Translations under genes and position numbers: made by a program
IMG/VR virus record: IMGVR_UViG_3300027736_000027
Coordinates: 32,001 to 96,000 of that record
DNA from: a virus
Length of the DNA: 64,000 bases
Strand: one strand, 5' to 3'
In this document: positions 1 through 54,848 of the stretch, one piece after another
Layout: each line of letters opens with the position of its first letter
Position numbering within the stretch: position 1 is the stretch's first letter
The notes under the pieces: generated by a model
Databases searched by the model: none
Seen by the model: the letters and a program-made list of their open reading frames with translations, nothing else
Told to the model about the DNA's origin: nothing

Positions 1-68
1 GTAGATAGTGTTTGAGCCAGCCCGGTCTTACGGCCTGCTGAGCCTCCTAATTTAGGTAGATTTTTCAT
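1..68 (-). CDS. 5' part of a hypothetical protein running off the window edge
   Basis: ATG at 68 after an A-rich leader; frame MKNLPKLGGSAGRKTGLAQTLS stays open to base 1. Confidence 0.4.
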   Translation of the reverse strand, partial: MKNLPKLGGSAGRKTGLAQTLS

Positions 69-95
69 TGTTATATTTCTTTTTTTATATTATTA

Positions 96-401
96 TTATA
101 CCGATAAACAGTATCGGTGGCCGTACCTTGTCAACACCTCTGCCCATTCATACTCACCGTGCTCCACGGCCTGCTCAACCGTCTCTAAGAAGAGGCTACT
201 GATTCTCGACCTTAACCAGACCCGGTACTCTGCAGCCCAAGGCTCGGTACCTATACCCCGTTCCAAGTCAACAATATATTGTCCGACTGCCCGGTCCAGT
301 AAGAGCCAGTCGCGACCGGCGGTCTCTAACCTGATCAGCAACTCGGTCCGCATCTGGGCCAGGTCGCCTAATTCTAAATACTCATTGTAATCTGCTTTCA
401 T
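96..401 (-). CDS. hypothetical protein with C-terminal UVR-like motif (start re-assigned to 401)
   Basis: ATG at 401 with promoter motif at 408-434; C-terminal VEQAVEHGEYEWAEVL; the longer ORF from 629 only translates the GC-rich repeat. Confidence 0.65.
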   Translation of the reverse strand: MKADYNEYLELGDLAQMRTELLIRLETAGRDWLLLDRAVGQYIVDLERGIGTEPWAAEYRVWLRSRISSLFLETVEQAVEHGEYEWAEVLTRYGHRYCLSV

Positions 402-407
402 ACCTAT

Positions 408-434
408 ATTATATCCTACCTGCAGACTAAGTTT
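408..434 (-). promoter_or_regulatory. class-II promoter AAACT-N15-ATATAAT
   Basis: matches a bipartite motif found upstream of about 12 genes in the window. Confidence 0.55.
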
Positions 435-472
435 TAGCCCTACTCTCGACTGGCCAGCCTGCAGCCAGCCTA

Positions 473-668
473 CCTGGCCTGCCTGGATAGAGCCTACCTG
501 GCCTGCCTGCCGGCAGCCTGTACCGGCTCCTGGCCAGTACCCCTGGCTAGCCCTGGCTGCTGCCTGGATAGAGCCCGGCCTGCTGCCAGGGTCACTCCTG
601 GAGTCAATACCAGGCAGCCCTGGGACCACTCCTGGAGTCAGCCAGGGTCACTCCGGGAGGTGCCCCGG
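473..668. repeat. GC-rich array of CCNGG sites, about 11-bp phased from 529 to 664
   Basis: 13 CCWGG + 3 CCSGG; starts include 529,542,552,563,574,586,597,610,619,631,642,653,664. Confidence 0.85.
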
Positions 669-684
669 TAGTGAACTATGCCCC

Positions 685-727
685 TATAAAAAAAGTCTCC
701 AGGAGCAGAACTCATGACTTTTTTATA
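685..727. repeat. AT-rich inverted repeat at the centre of the GC-rich element
   Basis: TATAAAAAAAGTC (685-697) and GACTTTTTTATA (716-727). Confidence 0.75.
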
Positions 728-740
728 TTTTACCTGGTGC

Positions 741-954
741 CCCCAGGTCCAGGAACCGTCTCAGGAGCAATTTGCCCTTTTATCGGGCTCGTGGATCTTC
801 CCCCAGGTACGGGGACTCTTCCGGGTTAATTTGCCCTTTTATCTGGTTCGGGGATCTCCCCAGGTACGGGGCCTCTGCCTGGCTAATTTGTCCTAAGTGC
901 TGGTTCCTGGATTCCCCCAGGTCCAGGGCCGGTTTGGAACTAAATTTAGCCAGG
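741..954. repeat. imperfect tandem repeat, about 3.5 copies of 57-60 bp (iteron-like)
   Basis: units start CCCCAGGT at 741, 801, 858, 915 and the full units share AATTTG(C/T)CCT and GGAT. Confidence 0.85.
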
Positions 955-964
955 TCTGTTGCTG

Positions 965-972
965 TATAAATA
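965..972 (+). promoter_or_regulatory. T4-like late promoter TATAAATA
   Basis: exact gp55 consensus just upstream of the ATG at 999. Confidence 0.6.
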
Positions 973-998
973 AATTTATAAAAAAGTAGAAAAAAGTT

Positions 999-1589
999 AT
1001 GAAGTTTACAAAGGAACAAGTTGAAGCTGCCGTAAAGGCTAAAGGTTATGCCTGGTTTGAAGGCGCAGAGGACTATGACCTTAATATTGTAGGGGTCCGA
1101 AATGCCTCAACTGGCCAAGTTGTAACCAATGTATTTGATGACGTGCTAACCGTATCCTATAAAGTTGCCGGGGTTTGGAAATTTGAGAGCTGGCCAGCAA
1201 CAACTGACCCAGGTAAAAAAGGTGTCTTGGAATATCATAATGCGGCCGGGGTTGCCCGACTGGTTGAAGGCCAGTACCGGGGATCTCATACGATTAGATT
1301 GCATCAAGGCAAATACGAGGCTCTGGGGCAGGCCAAAAACGTAAAAGTATATCGTGACTCAAACAAGGATCTTACCTATAACGAGGATACCATCCAAGAA
1401 GGTATATTTGGAATCAATATTCATAAAGCGGGTGCCGACTCTACCTATGTTGAAAACTGGTCCGAAGGCTGTCAGGTATTTAAGAGGTCTGCTGACTTTG
1501 ACAAGTTCATGGCAATTTGTAGACTTGCAGCCTCAATCCATAAAAACTCTTTTAGCTATACCCTAATCCGGTCAACTGATATCAAATAA
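999..1589 (+). CDS. putative cell-wall enzyme with L,D-transpeptidase (YkuD)-like His/Cys motif
   Basis: GINIHKAG...WSEGCQV. Confidence 0.6.
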   Translation: MKFTKEQVEAAVKAKGYAWFEGAEDYDLNIVGVRNASTGQVVTNVFDDVLTVSYKVAGVWKFESWPATTDPGKKGVLEYHNAAGVARLVEGQYRGSHTIRLHQGKYEALGQAKNVKVYRDSNKDLTYNEDTIQEGIFGINIHKAGADSTYVENWSEGCQVFKRSADFDKFMAICRLAASIHKNSFSYTLIRSTDIK

Positions 1590-1602
1590 ACAATAAACAA
1601 CT

Positions 1603-2076
1603 ATGAAACACATTAAACTATTTGAAGGTTTCTCTAAAGAAGAGAATATGGCTAAGTCATATACATTAGAATTCCTGCCTAAATTCTGGGAGGATCTGGG
1701 TATTAAACGACCTGCTTTTGGTGCTGAGGCTGGTCATAGTCTTCTCAATAGAGACAATACTATAAAATTAACGGTAGGGAATGATCCAACTATTATTTAT
1801 AGAAGAGATACTCGTATGTATGATGATAAAGGTCGAAAGGCAGGTAGAGATGATGATAGTATATGGTATTCGATTAATTTATACAAAACTCCCAATGGCT
1901 TTATTTCCAAATCTGATAATAATATGCTAAAATATTCTCTTGATTTTCAAGAGGACAAAGATGCTAAGATAGGTGGTAATATGAATTTGATACCAATAGG
2001 TGTAGGAGAATTCGCATCAGAAGAAGTCGGTAGTATGGATAATAGGGAATTTTTTAAGATAGTAGCTGTTGACTAA
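1603..2076 (+). CDS. leader-tagged hypothetical protein (putative internal head protein)
   Basis: N-terminus MKHIKLFEGFSKEE. Confidence 0.75.
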   Translation: MKHIKLFEGFSKEENMAKSYTLEFLPKFWEDLGIKRPAFGAEAGHSLLNRDNTIKLTVGNDPTIIYRRDTRMYDDKGRKAGRDDDSIWYSINLYKTPNGFISKSDNNMLKYSLDFQEDKDAKIGGNMNLIPIGVGEFASEEVGSMDNREFFKIVAVD

Positions 2077-2089
2077 AAATAAATACAAT

Positions 2090-2560
2090 ATGAAACACAT
2101 TAAACTATTTGAAGGTTTCTCTAGAGAAGAGAATAGCTTAATATTAGAGTTTGATTATGAAAAACATAAACAAGAAGATCTAGACATAATTGATAGATTT
2201 ATTATCTCTATTAATCCAGGTACGGCTGATGTTCTTGAAGTGGAAGGACTTTTAGCAAGGACTAAACACCATAAGTTAGTATTTAAACCGTTAACCAATA
2301 CCAAGATATTTAAAAGTTCTGATTCTAGAAAACTACTCAAAGATGAGGAAATTAATTTGAATCAGGCTAGTCGAAACACAGATAACGCGGTAAACCATCT
2401 AAACACCAATATCAACAACTGGTTAGCTATCAAAACTGATTATGATAATTTAGTTCATGAAATACGGGTTGGTAAAATTATAGATGTTGCAGGATATGGA
2501 ACTTCTACTATCGGTGGTTTAAACTGTATATTTAATACTATAAAATTTGATAAAATATAA
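2090..2560 (+). CDS. leader-tagged hypothetical protein (start re-assigned to 2090)
   Basis: MKHIKLFEGFSREE; first 45 nt differ at one position from the gene at 1603. Confidence 0.75.
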   Translation: MKHIKLFEGFSREENSLILEFDYEKHKQEDLDIIDRFIISINPGTADVLEVEGLLARTKHHKLVFKPLTNTKIFKSSDSRKLLKDEEINLNQASRNTDNAVNHLNTNINNWLAIKTDYDNLVHEIRVGKIIDVAGYGTSTIGGLNCIFNTIKFDKI

Positions 2561-2573
2561 AATAAATACAATT

Positions 2574-3155
2574 ATGAAACACATTAAACTATTTGAAGGC
2601 TTTGTTGATGATCACGAAAGAATCTATAATAAGATTAGCCATTCACCAAGTAAGATAACTATAGAGTTAACTGAAAAGGGCAAAGACCTTATAGAAGGCC
2701 TACTACACGGTTGGGTGGAATCGTCAAGACCTGCTATTCAAACCGGCGGTTATAAACCACATACTATTATAGATATCAAAGATGCGGTAACAGTCTCAGC
2801 AAGTTATGGTGATGATGATAATAGTCGTCGTACTGTAGTGATTGGTCAGATTGAAATTAGAGGTAACTATGATAGTTGGGAGGGTATCTCACCGTTAACT
2901 AAATTATTACCAGATGAAAGTGGTAAAGAATACACAACGGGGTATTTCCAAATCTTTGTTAAATATTACCCGTTAGAAGATGAAGCTAGGACAGGAGCGA
3001 GTATAAGTATTCTGCAAGGTCTTAGGGCCAGTGAGAAGGATCAATATAAAGAACTAAAGAGAGGAAAATACCCTAAATACAATTGTGACTTTGATAAGGT
3101 TGAACCCGGCGAAGTAGATGATAGAGGTTACTTTAAGATAGTAGATATAAAATAA
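2574..3155 (+). CDS. leader-tagged hypothetical protein (start re-assigned to 2574)
   Basis: MKHIKLFEGF; C-terminal DDRGYFKIVDIK resembles DNREFFKIVAVD of gene 1603. Confidence 0.75.
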   Translation: MKHIKLFEGFVDDHERIYNKISHSPSKITIELTEKGKDLIEGLLHGWVESSRPAIQTGGYKPHTIIDIKDAVTVSASYGDDDNSRRTVVIGQIEIRGNYDSWEGISPLTKLLPDESGKEYTTGYFQIFVKYYPLEDEARTGASISILQGLRASEKDQYKELKRGKYPKYNCDFDKVEPGEVDDRGYFKIVDIK

Positions 3156-3169
3156 AATAAAGGATAATT

Positions 3170-3949
3170 ATGAAACACATTAAACTATTTGAAAGTTTCT
3201 CTGAAGAGTCAGGGTCAAGTCCAATTGAGGATTTTTATAAAAAGTATTATCCATCATCTTTAACGGCATCGCTAGACCCAAACTCCCAAGAAGCAAAGGA
3301 TCTACTGCTATATATTGACCTAAATTTAGGTCGACTAAGATCATCCGATGACACTGAGTTTTTACAAATACAAAAGAAATCTGGCTGGGGAGATATATTT
3401 CCAACCTATACAGAAATATTGAAAACTGATGATGCAGAACTTACTAAACTGGTTGATAACATTTATAAAAATGAAATTGCAGCCGTTAAGTCAATTTATA
3501 ATAACAAAAGCGATACGCAATTAACTGAAAGTTTTGATTTATCAAATGATAGCTGGAGAAATTGGGCTATTAGTAAAACTAAAAATCTGACATATGATGA
3601 TTTAGATAGTCATGAACAATCTTTTGTTGACCAAATATCTGATTTTATTAATGATACCTATTCTTATAAATTTCAAGAGTATAATGTTAATAGATATTCT
3701 AACGCGCCGCCCGCTGGGTTTAATAAACAATTGTTAAGGGTTGAAAATGGGCTAAGCCGAAAAGATATCGTTAATTTATCTGAAGATCTTGATACACGGT
3801 TTAATAAAGATAAATTTCTAACAATAGATGAATCTGGAACTCATTTTATAAAACTCGAACAAATTCTTGGAGATTACTATAAGTTGATATTAGACCCGCT
3901 TTTTATAAAAAAATATGAAAAAGAAGCCAAAGACTTTTATCGTAACTAA
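3170..3949 (+). CDS. leader-tagged hypothetical protein
   Basis: MKHIKLFESFSEE; internal LTES. Confidence 0.75.
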   Translation: MKHIKLFESFSEESGSSPIEDFYKKYYPSSLTASLDPNSQEAKDLLLYIDLNLGRLRSSDDTEFLQIQKKSGWGDIFPTYTEILKTDDAELTKLVDNIYKNEIAAVKSIYNNKSDTQLTESFDLSNDSWRNWAISKTKNLTYDDLDSHEQSFVDQISDFINDTYSYKFQEYNVNRYSNAPPAGFNKQLLRVENGLSRKDIVNLSEDLDTRFNKDKFLTIDESGTHFIKLEQILGDYYKLILDPLFIKKYEKEAKDFYRN

Positions 3950-10816: not shown

Positions 10817-11014
10817 TTAACCAGTAATGGACTTAGTGTAATAAGACCATAGTACTTGACAATACTCATACTTTTCTAATTTTTGAAATTCTTTAATTAT
10901 TGGTAAAATATCAACCCAATATTTAGAAGACGTGCCATTATTTAGCAAGTCCCTATACTTGAGTATAAGTTCTAAATTTAAGTCTTCTTTTTCTTTTTCG
11001 TGAATAGTGTACAT
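10817..11014 (-). CDS. small protein with UVR-like motif
   Basis: EFQKLEKYEYCQVL; likely start MYTIHEK at 11014. Confidence 0.5.
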   Translation of the reverse strand: MYTIHEKEKEDLNLELILKYRDLLNNGTSSKYWVDILPIIKEFQKLEKYEYCQVLWSYYTKSITG

Positions 11015-11972
11015 GAGAATTTTTATTTTTTCTAGGTTTAACCTCAAGCCGGTAGTCAATATTAATTCCAAGTAGCCGATTAATACATGCAACTAAATCA
11101 TAAGTATGTAAACTTAAGACTGTTGTATAGTCATCGGATCGGTATCCACCAAATAGGGCACATGAAACTGGTAGTGGTCGCCCTAACTTTTCATCCATTA
11201 CTTTTACCCAAGCCCAAAAAAAGTCAGCACATTTAGTCCAATACTCAGTACTACACTGATGGCCTAATTCATCGTCACAATGCGAATCTGCACCATGACA
11301 CCAAACTACATAGCTAATTTTACCCGATAAAATAGCTGGTTCCAAGGTATTTTTAATAAAGTCTACTAAATTTTCATAATATGAATAGTCAATTCCAGTT
11401 GGATTAAAATTAAAATTCTCTGGAATAGCCTCATTTATCTCAGGCTGAAATTCCCGACTGTCCTCTATTGAATTACCGAAGTGGCCGTCTAGGTCTAAAT
11501 AACAACCTCTTTTATTAAATTCTCTCCATATTTTAACTGATGCAATTACCTGTCCACTAAATGTACAAAATCCACTACCACCAGTTGGTCTAGCATGGTG
11601 AAACCCGCTGGTTGGACTGAAACTAACGGTTTCCGGCTCCACTATTGAATTTTTTATAGCTGAATATAGAGAGGCATTTGTGTATCTAACTGAGTTAGCA
11701 AATTGCGGACTCCATTCTAAGCCGTTTGATCTAGATAAGTATCCTCCACTAAAAAAATCATCAACATAATTATCGGTATGGGCTAATTTAAAATCAGCAT
11801 TACCGAATATATTAAAATTTTTAGTTATTGAAAAGTTACTTAATAAATTATTGTCTCTAAGATATTCAATTAATAATTTTGGTTTTAGCGGGCTCTTACT
11901 AAAATTTAAACTGGAATTATTTTCTAAAACCTGTTTTTCGTTATAAAATATTTTAATTAGGTTATTCCTCAT
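10953..11972 (-). CDS. zinc-dependent histone deacetylase family (HDAC/AcuC-like) protein
   Basis: GFHHA, SGFCTF, LDLDGHFGN, GADSHCDDELG, GGY motifs. Confidence 0.9.
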   Translation of the reverse strand: MRNNLIKIFYNEKQVLENNSSLNFSKSPLKPKLLIEYLRDNNLLSNFSITKNFNIFGNADFKLAHTDNYVDDFFSGGYLSRSNGLEWSPQFANSVRYTNASLYSAIKNSIVEPETVSFSPTSGFHHARPTGGSGFCTFSGQVIASVKIWREFNKRGCYLDLDGHFGNSIEDSREFQPEINEAIPENFNFNPTGIDYSYYENLVDFIKNTLEPAILSGKISYVVWCHGADSHCDDELGHQCSTEYWTKCADFFWAWVKVMDEKLGRPLPVSCALFGGYRSDDYTTVLSLHTYDLVACINRLLGINIDYRLEVKPRKNKNSHVHYSRKRKRRLKFRTYTQV

Positions 11973-12040: not shown

Positions 12041-13909
12041 TTATTTTACCTCTTCAAAATCGGCATCTGCAACTGGCTCATCAGCAGTAGGCGAAGTAGG
12101 TTCGGCCTGATTGGCTTTATACATATCTTCACTGGCTGCTGTCCAGGCTGCATTTATTGCAGCTAGAGCAGAGTCAATTTTTGAAAGGTCTTTAGCTGAA
12201 TACGCCTCCTTTAACTCAGTTAAAGCGGTTTCAATACCTGTCTTTTTCTCGGCAGGTATTTTATCTCCATATTCATTTAACTGTTTTTCGGTTTGAAAAA
12301 CCATACTATCAGCTTCATTTAATTTCTCAACTTCTTCTTTTACTTTTTTATCAGAATCTGCATTCATTTCAGCCTCACGTTTCATGCGATCAATTTCTTC
12401 TTTGCTTAAACCGCTTTTTGCCTCAATCCTGATATTATGTGATTTACCGGTTGCTTTATCTTTTGCACTTACATTTAAGATACCATTTGCATCAATATCC
12501 AAAGTAACTTCAACCTGAGGTACACCTCTTTGAGCTGGCGGAATTCCATCTAAATTAAATTCACCTAACTTTCTGTTATCTTTTGCCATTGGTCTCTCAC
12601 CTTGAAAAACAACTATTTGAACTGATGGCTGGTTATCCGCCGCTGTACTAAAATCTTGCGATTTTTTAGTTGGAATAGTTGTATTTGACTCTATTAATTT
12701 GGTAAATACTCCACCAACGGTTTCAATACCTAATGATAATGGAGTAACATCTAATAATAATACATCCTTTACATCACCAGATAAAACTCCTCCTTGAATT
12801 GCGGCGCCTAGTGCAACCACTTCATCTGGATTTACACTTCTATTTGGGGCTTTACCAAAGAATTTTTCAACTGCTGCTTGAATGGCTGGAATTCGGGTTG
12901 ATCCACCGACCAGGATAATTTCATCAATATCAGCCGTTGATAAACCTGCATTTTTTAGAGCAGATTTACATGGTTTAATTGTACGCTTAATCAAACTATC
13001 TGATAACTGTTCAAATTTAGCACGAGTAAGTGTTTTAACTAGGTGTTTAGGTATTCCATTTACCGGCATTATATACGGTAAATTAATTTCGGTACTGGTT
13101 GAACTAGATAATTCAACTTTTGCTTTTTCGGCCCCTTCCTTTAATCGTTGCAGAGACATTGGGTCGTGACGCAAATCTAAACCTTCTTCTTTTTTAAATT
13201 CATCGGCTAACCAGTCAATAATTACCTGATCAAAATCATCTCCACCTAGGTGAGTATCTCCATCGGTACTTTTAACCTCAAATACTCCATCACCTAGTTC
13301 AAGAACAGAAACGTCGTGTGTACCGCCTCCGCAATCAAACACAACAATTTTCATCTCTTTGCCTTTTTTATCCATACCATAGGCAAGAGCTGCAGCGGTA
13401 GGCTCATTGATAATTCGCTTTACCGTTAAACCTGCAATTTCGCCGGCCTCTTTGGTTGCCTGACGCTGAGCATCATTAAAGTAAGCAGGTACAGTAATAA
13501 CCGCTTCAGTTACTTCGGTTCCTAAATATTCTTCGGCTGTTTTTTTCATTTTTTGTAAAATGATAGCCGAAATTTCTTGAGCCGTATATTTTCTATCGTC
13601 AATTTCTACACGTGGGCTATTGTTTTCGCCTTTTACTATTAGATAAGGAACTTTTGCAATTTCCTTTACAATCTCAGCATACGTGTGGCCCATAAAACGT
13701 TTAATTGAATAAACTGTTTTTTTAGGATTAGTGATTGACTGTCGTTTTGCTGGATCTCCAACCTTACGTTCGCCGCCTTCTATAAAGGCAACAATTGAAG
13801 GCGTGGTACGTTTTCCTTCATTATTTGCAATAACCACAGGTTCATTACCTTCCATGACTGAAACACAACTATTAGTTGTTCCCAAGTCTATTCCTATTAT
13901 TTTTCCCAT
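12041..13909 (-). CDS. dnaK: chaperone DnaK (Hsp70), Bacteroidota-like
   Basis: [36 protein letters not shown]; full-length 622 aa. Confidence 0.98.
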
Positions 13910-31254: not shown

Positions 31255-31778
31255 TAATTAGAGGCTGGGGTGGTTTCAGTTTCTCGTAATTTTGCAATTT
31301 CAGAATCTAATGATTTCATTTCCATAATTACAGTATTTAAAGCAATTGCAATTCTAAATACACGCTGTGCAGTATCTAAGCCAGAGCCTTCATATCTATT
31401 TAAAATTAAGGCACAGGCTTCAATTGCAGATGCTGATAAATTTGCAGTAGGATTATCAATTCCACTATTAGTAGCTGCCTCTAGTGTTCCAATTGCAGAC
31501 GAAAAGCCTAAATAGCAAGTCATTAACATAAAAGCCTCATTTGGACCAATAAATGGAAATTTGTTATTACAGCCATTTTTAATCCATTTTAAATCAGTTA
31601 AGTCTAAATTAATAGCCCAATATCCAGTACGCTTATTAATTAATTTGTCAAGTTCTGACATTTCTTTAGCCTCAGGCTCAGTGGTAGTTTCAGTAGATGG
31701 TTCAGAGCCTGCAACTATTTCAGTATCAGGTGAATCCATTACTAGTGAATCAGTAATTAAGTCGGTTGTTTTTTTCAT
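31254..31778 (-). CDS. hypothetical protein
   Basis: 174 aa; class-II promoter at 31804-31830. Confidence 0.7.
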   Translation of the reverse strand: MKKTTDLITDSLVMDSPDTEIVAGSEPSTETTTEPEAKEMSELDKLINKRTGYWAINLDLTDLKWIKNGCNNKFPFIGPNEAFMLMTCYLGFSSAIGTLEAATNSGIDNPTANLSASAIEACALILNRYEGSGLDTAQRVFRIAIALNTVIMEMKSLDSEIAKLRETETTPASN

Positions 31779-54454: not shown

Positions 54455-54836
54455 GGGGGCGACCGGATTTGACGTTAGTTATCCAATTGAGTCTGCATGT
54501 CGAGGATGATACTTAAAGCTCGTAAACCTGGTATTACTGTAAGTTAATTGACAACAATATAACTTTCTGGAGCCTTGTTAACCAAGTTAACACTCCAGCT
54601 ACTGAAGAGCTTTTATTAGCTGCATAAGTGGTAAGCGGCAACTGCTTAAGTAACCCAAAGTTGCAAACCGATATGATCAATATCGTTAAAAGTGATATAG
54701 AAGATAAGTTCTCAGTAAACCGACCTATTCAATAAGGGAACTGTGAAGTTTGTTAGTTTAGCAAAATTAACTAAGCATGTAAACGAAGGCCTAATTTGAG
54801 GCTATACGGACGAGGTTTCGAATACCTCCGCCTCCA
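54455..54836 (+). ncRNA. ssrA: tmRNA (one-piece); tag (A)DNNITFWSLVNQVNTPATEELLLAA at 54550-54627
   Basis: acceptor GGGGGCG/CGCCTCC with G3:U pair and discriminator A; GGATTTGAC; T-arm GAGGT-TTCGAAT-ACCTC; tag ends LAA-stop; CCA not encoded. Confidence 0.95.
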
Positions 54837-54848
54837 CTGTGACTGTTT

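Follow-up and report, generated by a model that had tools for sequence, protein, structure and literature searches.

A Single-Copy Array of Phased CCNGG Sites at a Gene Junction of Uncultured T4-Like Jumbo Phages

What role does a short GC-rich element play between two divergent gene blocks of an AT-rich virus? The element lies at positions 473-954 of the window analyzed here, a stretch of 64,000 nucleotides that corresponds to bases 32001-96000 of the 110,950-bp viral contig IMGVR_UViG_3300027736_000027 (G000; estimated completeness in IMG/VR, 41%). The GC content is 59% in the element and 37.3% in the contig. About 600 bp without coding capacity separate the leftward gene, designated gene A, from the rightward gene. 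The listing of open reading frames (ORFs) and the contig GC content agree with the preliminary description of this region as a GC-rich element flanked by divergent genes in an AT-rich genome. The best-supported interpretation is that it represents a single-copy, cis-acting DNA control region common to a clade of uncultured T4-like jumbo phages. Its function is tentatively interpreted as a cooperative protein-docking or operator array at an early/late junction, with a small basic protein encoded nearby (protein C) as the candidate binder; the likelihood of this interpretation is put slightly short of even.

Phased CCNGG Sites and the AT-Rich Core

The element contains 24 CCWGG sites (473, 482, 497, 529, 542, 552, 563, 586, 597, 610, 619, 631, 642, 699, 733, 743, 749, 803, 860, 878, 906, 917, 923, and 950) and 4 CCSGG sites (574, 653, 664, and 821), and both the number and the positions given in the preliminary description were exact. 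Among 3000 sequences simulated with a first-order Markov model of the region's dinucleotide composition, the mean was only 4.1 ± 2.0 CCWGG sites and the maximum 12. The remaining 63 one-kb bins of the window have 0 to 4 CCWGG sites each. Thirteen consecutive CCNGG sites, between 529 and 664, had been described as about 11 bp apart, and the spacings bear this out: they are 13, 10, 11, 11, 12, 11, 13, 9, 12, 11, 11, and 11 bp (mean 11.25 bp). The phase coherence has its maximum at a period of 11.25 bp (R = 0.88), and random positions reach 0.63 at their 95th percentile. Both the site enrichment and the phasing are far above chance.

In the core-proximal part of the array, palindromic ACTCCNGGAG(T) sites take turns with plain CCNGG sites, leading to a super-period of 22-23 bp. 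The element carries helically phased tandem direct repeats, with the 11.25-bp lattice and this super-period. Next to the array is an AT-rich core of about 50 bp, which is conserved and bordered by GC-rich DNA. It includes the AT-rich inverted repeat noted before, in which TATAAAAAAAGTC (685-697) stands opposite GACTTTTTTATA (716-727); apart from an additional A, the two arms are complementary. The last site of the array (664) and the site in the core (699) are 35 bp apart, or about three lattice steps. The right-hand part was described as about 3.5 copies of a 57-60 bp unit, and four TTCCCCCAGGTACGGGG heads are found at 738, 798, 855, and 912; 57 bp correspond to five lattice steps. The overall layout is a long left set of sites and a sparser right set on roughly the same lattice, with the AT-rich core and its TATAAAAA box in between. 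Three tandem repeats of 24 bp at the left end, which the preliminary description did not include, also belong to the element (Table 1).

Homologous elements were collected by motif scans of viral contigs and blastn searches with the region, and scans of viral and metagenome contigs for protein A, the product of gene A, yielded many more. The part of the element including 684-735 was used for the profile models core.hmm and R1. The core profile matches 46 loci in addition to the window's own genome, and these represent 32 distinct sequences on contigs from uncultured jumbo phages. Many relatives have an equivalent, the lack of which had been named in the preliminary description as a refutation. 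A local oddity or a recent, functionless GC-rich insert is ruled out by these 32 homologues, in which lattice and core are kept. The preliminary interpretation is supported in part, in that the region is a conserved, non-coding, cis-acting element with iteron-like phased sites. No description of an element of such kind was found in the searchable literature.

All homologues share the same order of parts: gene A, directed outward, lineage-specific short repeats, the CCNGG array, the core, the hairpin modules, and a promoter. The lineage-specific repeats, which are the counterparts of the 24-bp repeats in the window, are for example three 22-bp units in L101 and CGCAAC and CAGGTCT repeats in L208-L210. 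The core is composed of an A-box, CCNGGAG, and a T-tract, and its alignments contain columns in which T or A is invariant. Hairpin modules of the ATTCTCCCCNGG...GGGG form occur one to four times, and the modules of the 57-60 bp unit number one or two in relatives. The gene that follows the last promoter is unrelated between lineages.

The lattice period and the gaps were analyzed in 26 distinct homologous elements. Across the homologues, the distances between neighboring sites peak at 11 bp (100 cases, with 51 at 10, 64 at 12, and 44 at 13 bp) and show harmonics at 22-23 and 33-34 bp. Twenty-three elements fit best to a period of 11.15-11.7 bp, and the remaining three, which are the most divergent, to one of 10.55-10.65 bp. 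In 17 of the 26, the last array site and the core site are separated across the A-box by 33-35 nt, equivalent to three lattice steps. Sequence autocorrelation has maxima at lags 11-12, 23, 33-34, and 46, the strongest being at lag 23. In a clear majority of elements (strictly, 15 of 25), palindromic CTCCNGGAG sites, in fuller form TGACTCCWGGAGTCA, alternate with plain CCNGG sites, most cleanly by the core. They constitute operator-like palindromes of about 15-17 bp every 22-24 bp or so, made of ACTCCNGGAGT / TGACTCCWGGAGTCA units. Any of the four bases can occupy the center of the site, often with the same base in a block of sites, such as seven CCAGG in L101 and eight CCTGG in L158. Runs of one central base indicate growth by local duplication of units, as in iterons.

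The element is present as a single copy per genome in G000, G001, G002, G004, and G006, and it is also found in G003. Both the element and protein A are absent from G005 (99% complete) and G012 (100% complete). G005 is a distant phage in which 149 of the 889 ORFs of G001 are in common, so its lack of the element indicates clade-specificity only; profiling of gene presence and absence against G005 was uninformative for the same reason. Among the 69 closest relatives found through the rightward gene, no CCNGG cluster was seen upstream of that gene. The module is tied to gene A and not to the endolysin-like gene on its right. Matches of the CCWGG-rich pattern at L159:1200-1700, L163:13300-13700, L116:2500-3500, and L160:780-900 are collagen-like Gly-X-Pro coding sequences and were rejected as false positives.

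Table 1. Parts of the element and adjoining genes, in window coordinates.
Feature	Position	Strand	Remarks
Gene B, 5' part	1-68	-	ORF; small membrane protein with motif PVKWLWNWL; runs on leftward to genome position 31796
Gene A	96-401	-	ORF; 101 aa, acidic; first of the leftward operon, transcribed away from the element
Spacer, 48 bp	402-449		Promoter-like boxes, read from the sequence
Three tandem 24-bp repeats	450-521		Unit CTGGCCTGCCTGCAGNCAGCCTAC; hold the first three CCTGG sites
Main phased array	529-668		13 CCNGG sites, mean spacing 11.25 bp
Conserved AT-rich core	684-735		A-box TATAAAAAAA (685-694), CCAGGAG site (699-705), T-tract (719-731)
3.5 copies of 57-60 bp unit	738-930		Each with a short G+C hairpin/palindrome (CCCCAGGTACGGGG) and a AATTTGCCC box
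Late-promoter end	950-972	+	CCAGGTCT box and T4-type late promoter TATAAATA (965-972), serving the rightward gene
Endolysin-like gene (phrog_3000)	999-1589	+	Rightward neighbor; outside the module

A second GC-rich array is observed at genome positions 13008-13240, where five ACTAGGGAGT motifs are exactly 58 bp apart. It is located at the far end of the early module, beside an IS607-like serine recombinase gene (L001:1390-2025). The ACTAGGGAGT motif resembles the array unit ACTCCNGGAGT, and 58 bp is close to five steps of an 11.3-bp lattice.

Double-Stranded DNA or RNA

The element could also act as RNA, either as a non-coding RNA gene or as a long regulatory leader transcribed rightward. Variants of this explanation are a protein sponge with repeated GGA/CCNGG hairpins and a terminator/antiterminator leader ahead of the late gene. 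A high-GC region inside an AT-rich genome is in line with it, and so is the promoter arrangement in some lineages. A stereotyped cassette (ATTTTTTCCTTTCGCG...TTACTTTTACC) stands ahead of nearly all genes in the L094 lineage, and the start codon follows 36-86 nt after it. Ten of ten other cassettes precede an ORF at +36 to +86, and the eleventh faces the array without an ORF. In L095, L125, and L158, the element is downstream of a co-oriented gene, and the junction in L158 is closed by a convergent terminator. The L094 cassette without an ORF and the co-oriented upstream gene in the other three imply that the array is probably transcribed, at least in these four phages. Such transcription fits either an RNA role or a DNA site activated or primed by transcription.

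The cassette itself has the form ATTTTTTCCT(T/G)TC...T(T/A)AC(T)TTTA(C/G)C and is seen ahead of almost every gene in L094, L095, L125, and L158 (for example at L094:7030 and, on the minus strand, L095:3119). Its second box is similar to TAnnTTTG, the -7 element of Bacteroidota, and gives a hint of the host group.

The tests for structure as RNA came out negative. The fold energy of the array is -105 kcal/mol against -84.5 kcal/mol for shuffled sequence, and short G+C hairpins recur in the 3' part. However, the energy is alike on both strands (-105 and -103 kcal/mol), as is expected of palindromic motifs, and the 3' part folds only mildly below shuffled sequence. An Rfam scan of window positions 1-3000 gave only one match, at chance level. 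RNAalifold gave -1.58 kcal/mol and no compensatory pair for 13 aligned core sequences, in which the power to detect covariation is limited to that of about six independent lineages. Hairpin mismatches show no bias of G.U over A.C, with 5 against 9 in the 3' part and 26 against 32 in the array. The central bases of neighboring sites are not complementary either: 65 of 203 pairs at lag 1 and 53 of 165 at lag 2 are complementary, where 68.9 and 57.8 are expected. Hairpins between neighboring CCNGG sites were rejected on this lack of excess complementarity.

Translation of the region, which would have refuted the preliminary interpretation, was rejected. The 11-bp period is not divisible by three, and a Phe-rich short ORF after the CCAGGAG box (MTFSYFSKIP in L161) is not conserved; L226, L242, L158, and L208 have lost its start codon, and the reading frame varies between lineages. 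Taken together, the results of these tests favor a double-stranded DNA element, and an action as RNA is considered improbable.

Linked Genes and Possible Functions

The gene for protein A is located 0.1-1.4 kb from the element at every locus with enough flanking sequence, and the two co-occur one to one. One match each was found in G001 and G006-G009, and no cultured phage in the phage collection encodes protein A. The family contains 105 clusters, all of them unnamed, with a median pI of 4.7 (4.8 for the copy in the window). Close relatives of protein A are 84-90% identical to it, and the loci that encode them are outside the element comparison. The model of protein A (pLDDT 84.6) is a four-helix bundle, and a fold search gave no informative match. 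With this acidity and no DNA-binding fold, protein A is unlikely to be the binder of the array.

Protein C is a better candidate. It was singled out by comparing the early modules of G000 and the distant G009. Its gene, the third of the leftward operon, is at genome positions 31525-31761 on the minus strand (L001:19525-19761), just left of the window, and encodes 78 aa with a pI of 11.7. In most lineages, 0.9-1.8 kb separate it from the core, and it is within 5 kb of the element in every lineage that allowed the check. In the lineages of G001 and L208-L210, the gene is on the opposite side of the element and still adjacent to it. Protein C is single-copy in G000, G001, G002, and G009, and it is absent from G005, which likewise lacks the element. 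The family shares the stretch GD..x.VA..TG(F/V)S...(Y/F)(V/T)S.V(L/I).G. It shows weak Pfam matches to HTH_26, HTH_3, and HTH_31 (E 0.03-0.16) and a profile match to the Cro-like YdaS structure in PDB (E = 0.009). The model (pLDDT 85) has five helices; its structural neighbors are weak (Foldseek E ~1, VIA Z <=4.3) and almost all are Cro/C1/XRE domains. The signals are weak but consistent, and a Cro/C1-like helix-turn-helix is a lead for protein C rather than a proof of family membership.

Other proteins were considered as well. The dead IS607 TnpA, whose gene is about 13-25 kb from the element in G000, G001, G002, G008, and G009 (about 21-25 kb in G008 and G009), was rejected as a binder because it is not found in G003 and G004, which carry the element. 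No match to an EcoRII-C-like CCNGG reader was found in the phage, and this is uninformative because the control genomes gave none either. The early module includes a sigma-70-like gene (genome 23536-24258, minus strand) that is conserved at 63-73% identity in G001, G002, and G009; the TATAAAAA-type box in the core could be recognized by a phage sigma factor. In all four genomes compared, the early module also encodes a conserved DUF6011 protein (genome 29720-30232, minus strand; pI 10.1), whose C-terminus is rich in Cys and which is possibly a further DNA-binding candidate.

In the preferred interpretation, the 10-20 CCNGG sites on the 11.3-bp lattice would be a docking track, on which a small phage DNA-binding protein, for which protein C is the best candidate, assembles cooperatively into a single long nucleoprotein complex. 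In its core-proximal part, this row of sites has the 22-23 bp super-period of palindromic TGACTCCWGGAGTCA-like units. The complex would abut the conserved AT-rich core, which may be easily bent or melted and is placed between the leftward early operon (A, B, and C) and the rightward late gene. As protein C rises, the complex would switch transcription at the junction, shutting off or autoregulating the early operon and controlling a promoter in the core.

Several points weigh against this docking array. The array is upstream of the likely gene A promoter and not over it. In L095, L125, and L158, it follows a co-oriented short ORF instead of lying between divergent promoters, and in L094 and L125 the gene for protein C is 4.7-4.9 kb away. 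The helix-turn-helix assignment of protein C rests on weak scores. A simple repressor-operator model leaves the conserved AT-rich core and the hairpin modules unexplained. The 11.3-bp lattice differs from the 10.5 bp of relaxed B-DNA.

Two known systems serve as the closest working analogies of a docking array, although family membership is not established with either. In the lambdoid operators OR and OL, palindromes of about 17 bp are 22-24 bp apart at a divergent junction, with the gene for the helix-turn-helix protein Cro or cI alongside. The element resembles them in the spacing of its palindromes, the small Cro/C1-type candidate gene alongside, and the divergent transcription junction. 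Lambda has three operators, whereas there are up to about ten double units here, with extra CCNGG sites between the palindromes. There is no repressor/antirepressor pair or lysogeny module here, and the evidence for the fold and family of protein C is weak.

The other analogy is parC of plasmid R1, in which 11-bp iterons lie to either side of a promoter and ParR binds them cooperatively (PMC2241845). The parC repeats flank a promoter-bearing spacer of about 40 bp and double as an operator, and the small binder is encoded adjacently (PMC2241845). Both systems have long runs of short sites every 11 bp. The sites here are CCNGG pentamers with a free center, 13-20 in number, in contrast to the 5 + 5 11-bp iterons of parC. 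ParR is a ribbon-helix-helix protein, whereas protein C is predicted to be all-helical and helix-turn-helix-like. There is no ParM-like ATPase near the element. The only actin-fold gene, 12 kb away (window 12041-13909, minus strand), is a full-length Hsp70/DnaK (PF00012, E = 7e-256). The virus here is a lytic-type T4-like phage without an obvious need for partition.

The main rival is an iteron-type replication origin comparable to T4 oriE, which is rather unlikely. An initiator or the phage replisome would assemble on the phased repeats and the AT-rich core would melt, perhaps helped or primed by a transcript from an adjacent promoter. A docking array and such an origin are not mutually exclusive. 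The origin is kept under consideration because the grammar of the element resembles that of iteron origins, in which phased direct repeats are beside an AT-rich region (PMC4980987), and that of T4 oriE (PMC3016281). The element is single-copy, is at a divergent junction in G000 and G001, and has lineage-specific auxiliary repeats. The L094 promoter cassette directed into the array without an ORF is similar to the promoter-plus-unwinding-element arrangement of T4 oriF/oriG (PMC3016281).

Of the origin proposed in the preliminary description, the layout fits, with its phased repeats, AT-rich core, and divergent junction, but two other expectations do not. No inflection of the cumulative GC skew, which had been suggested as a check, is seen at the element in the 111-kb contig or in G001, a complete relative of 270,962 bp in which the skew climbs almost monotonically. 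An inflection would not necessarily be expected in T4-type phages. No recognizable Rep-like initiator is encoded beside the element either: protein A is acidic without a known fold, protein C has only 78 aa, and proteins A, B, and C have no match to a Rep family in Pfam or PHROGs. In addition, the array has no G/C strand skew (mean -0.01) and no G-rich strand favoring an R-loop.

In T4 oriE, 12-nt repeats are evenly spaced close to a point where transcription diverges, and the origin requires an early promoter; the role of its iterons is unproven (PMC3016281). The likenesses are the T4-type phage, the evenly spaced short direct repeats (12 nt in T4 and 11.3 here), the nearby switch in transcription direction, and an early-type promoter close by. 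The repeat sequences are unrelated, and the GC-rich make-up here has no counterpart in T4. The plasmid origins R6K gamma, RK2 oriV, and P1 oriR share with the element a super-period close to 22 bp, a cooperative spacing dependent on helical phase, and an adjoining AT-rich region (PMC4980987). Unlike in these origins, there is no winged-helix Rep initiator here and no DnaA boxes are seen, and the sites are far more numerous and far shorter.

A further proposal, which is unlikely, combines the two functions. Proteins A and C and the element would be an undescribed three-part module, in which a wrapped lattice opens the core and acts as transcription switch and primary replication origin in one. 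Protein C would polymerize along the 150-250 bp of the CCNGG lattice, and the 11.3-bp pitch would force the DNA to be under-wound and superhelically wrapped, stressing the adjacent AT-rich core open. Protein A could tune the complex as a DNA mimic or partner. If true, the module would provide the early/late switch and the primary origin for a large clade of freshwater jumbo phages.

T4-type jumbo phages of lakes are abundant and uncultured, and their replication start and early-late switch are undescribed. The element offers a sharply defined, conserved, single-copy landmark with few candidate partner proteins. For a cooperative DNA-protein filament, a lattice of 20 sites that combines a pentamer core, an unconstrained central base, and a pitch of 11.3 bp is unusual in design, and it could inform how such assemblies read DNA shape and twist.

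The remaining functions proposed in the preliminary description, a packaging (pac) or terminus site, a methylation-gated site, and a restriction decoy, found no support. A pac site recognized by terminase is very improbable. A clustered, phased, single-copy site is formally like the pac sites of P1 or SPP1, but pac sites are normally in or beside the small terminase gene, and here the T4-type large terminase gene is about 49 kb from the element. The assembly of the complete relative is circular, with an overlap of 127 bp, and the ends bear no relation to the element.

For a site gated by methylation, or a decoy for restriction enzymes specific to CCWGG or CCNGG, the sole point in favor is the match of the motif to the Dcm/EcoRII and SsoII/ScrFI targets, and either function is scarcely credible. 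The central base is free, so that the motif is CCNGG rather than the CCWGG target of Dcm, and many lineages are CCSGG-rich. In the contig and its five large relatives (G000-G005), no gene for a C5 or N4/N6 methylase (PF00145, PF01555) was matched, whereas positive control genomes were matched. CCWGG is not avoided in the rest of the genome, where 114 sites are observed and 75 expected. Clustered sites are known to activate EcoRII-type enzymes rather than to protect DNA from them, and a strict lattice with a conserved AT-rich core is not needed for a decoy.

Surroundings of the Element

Gene B is the second gene of the leftward operon, and its homologues adjoin the gene for protein A in the lineages of G001, G002, G003, and G009. 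In the spacer between gene A and the 24-bp repeats, promoters can be assigned only putatively, from the sequence. A minus-strand TATAAT (413->408) sits 6 nt ahead of the gene A ATG. On the plus strand, TAAGTTTT (428-435) looks like the phage's own -7 box oriented into the array, and a sigma-70-like site is predicted at 385-412. At the other end, the combination of CCAGGTCT and late promoter recurs in the L205 group, and the TATAAATA end is found in L101, L208, and L210. The gene in the position of the rightward neighbor varies by lineage.

Farther to the right, four neighboring genes on the plus strand (window 1603-3949) open with a shared leader, MKHIKLFE(G/S)F, and have unrelated bodies. A gene with a histone-deacetylase domain is present on the minus strand (window 10953-11972). 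ARAGORN called a tmRNA-like sequence with the tag peptide DNNITFWSLVNQVNTPATEELLLAA among tail and baseplate genes (window 54455-54837, plus strand), which may be a false call.

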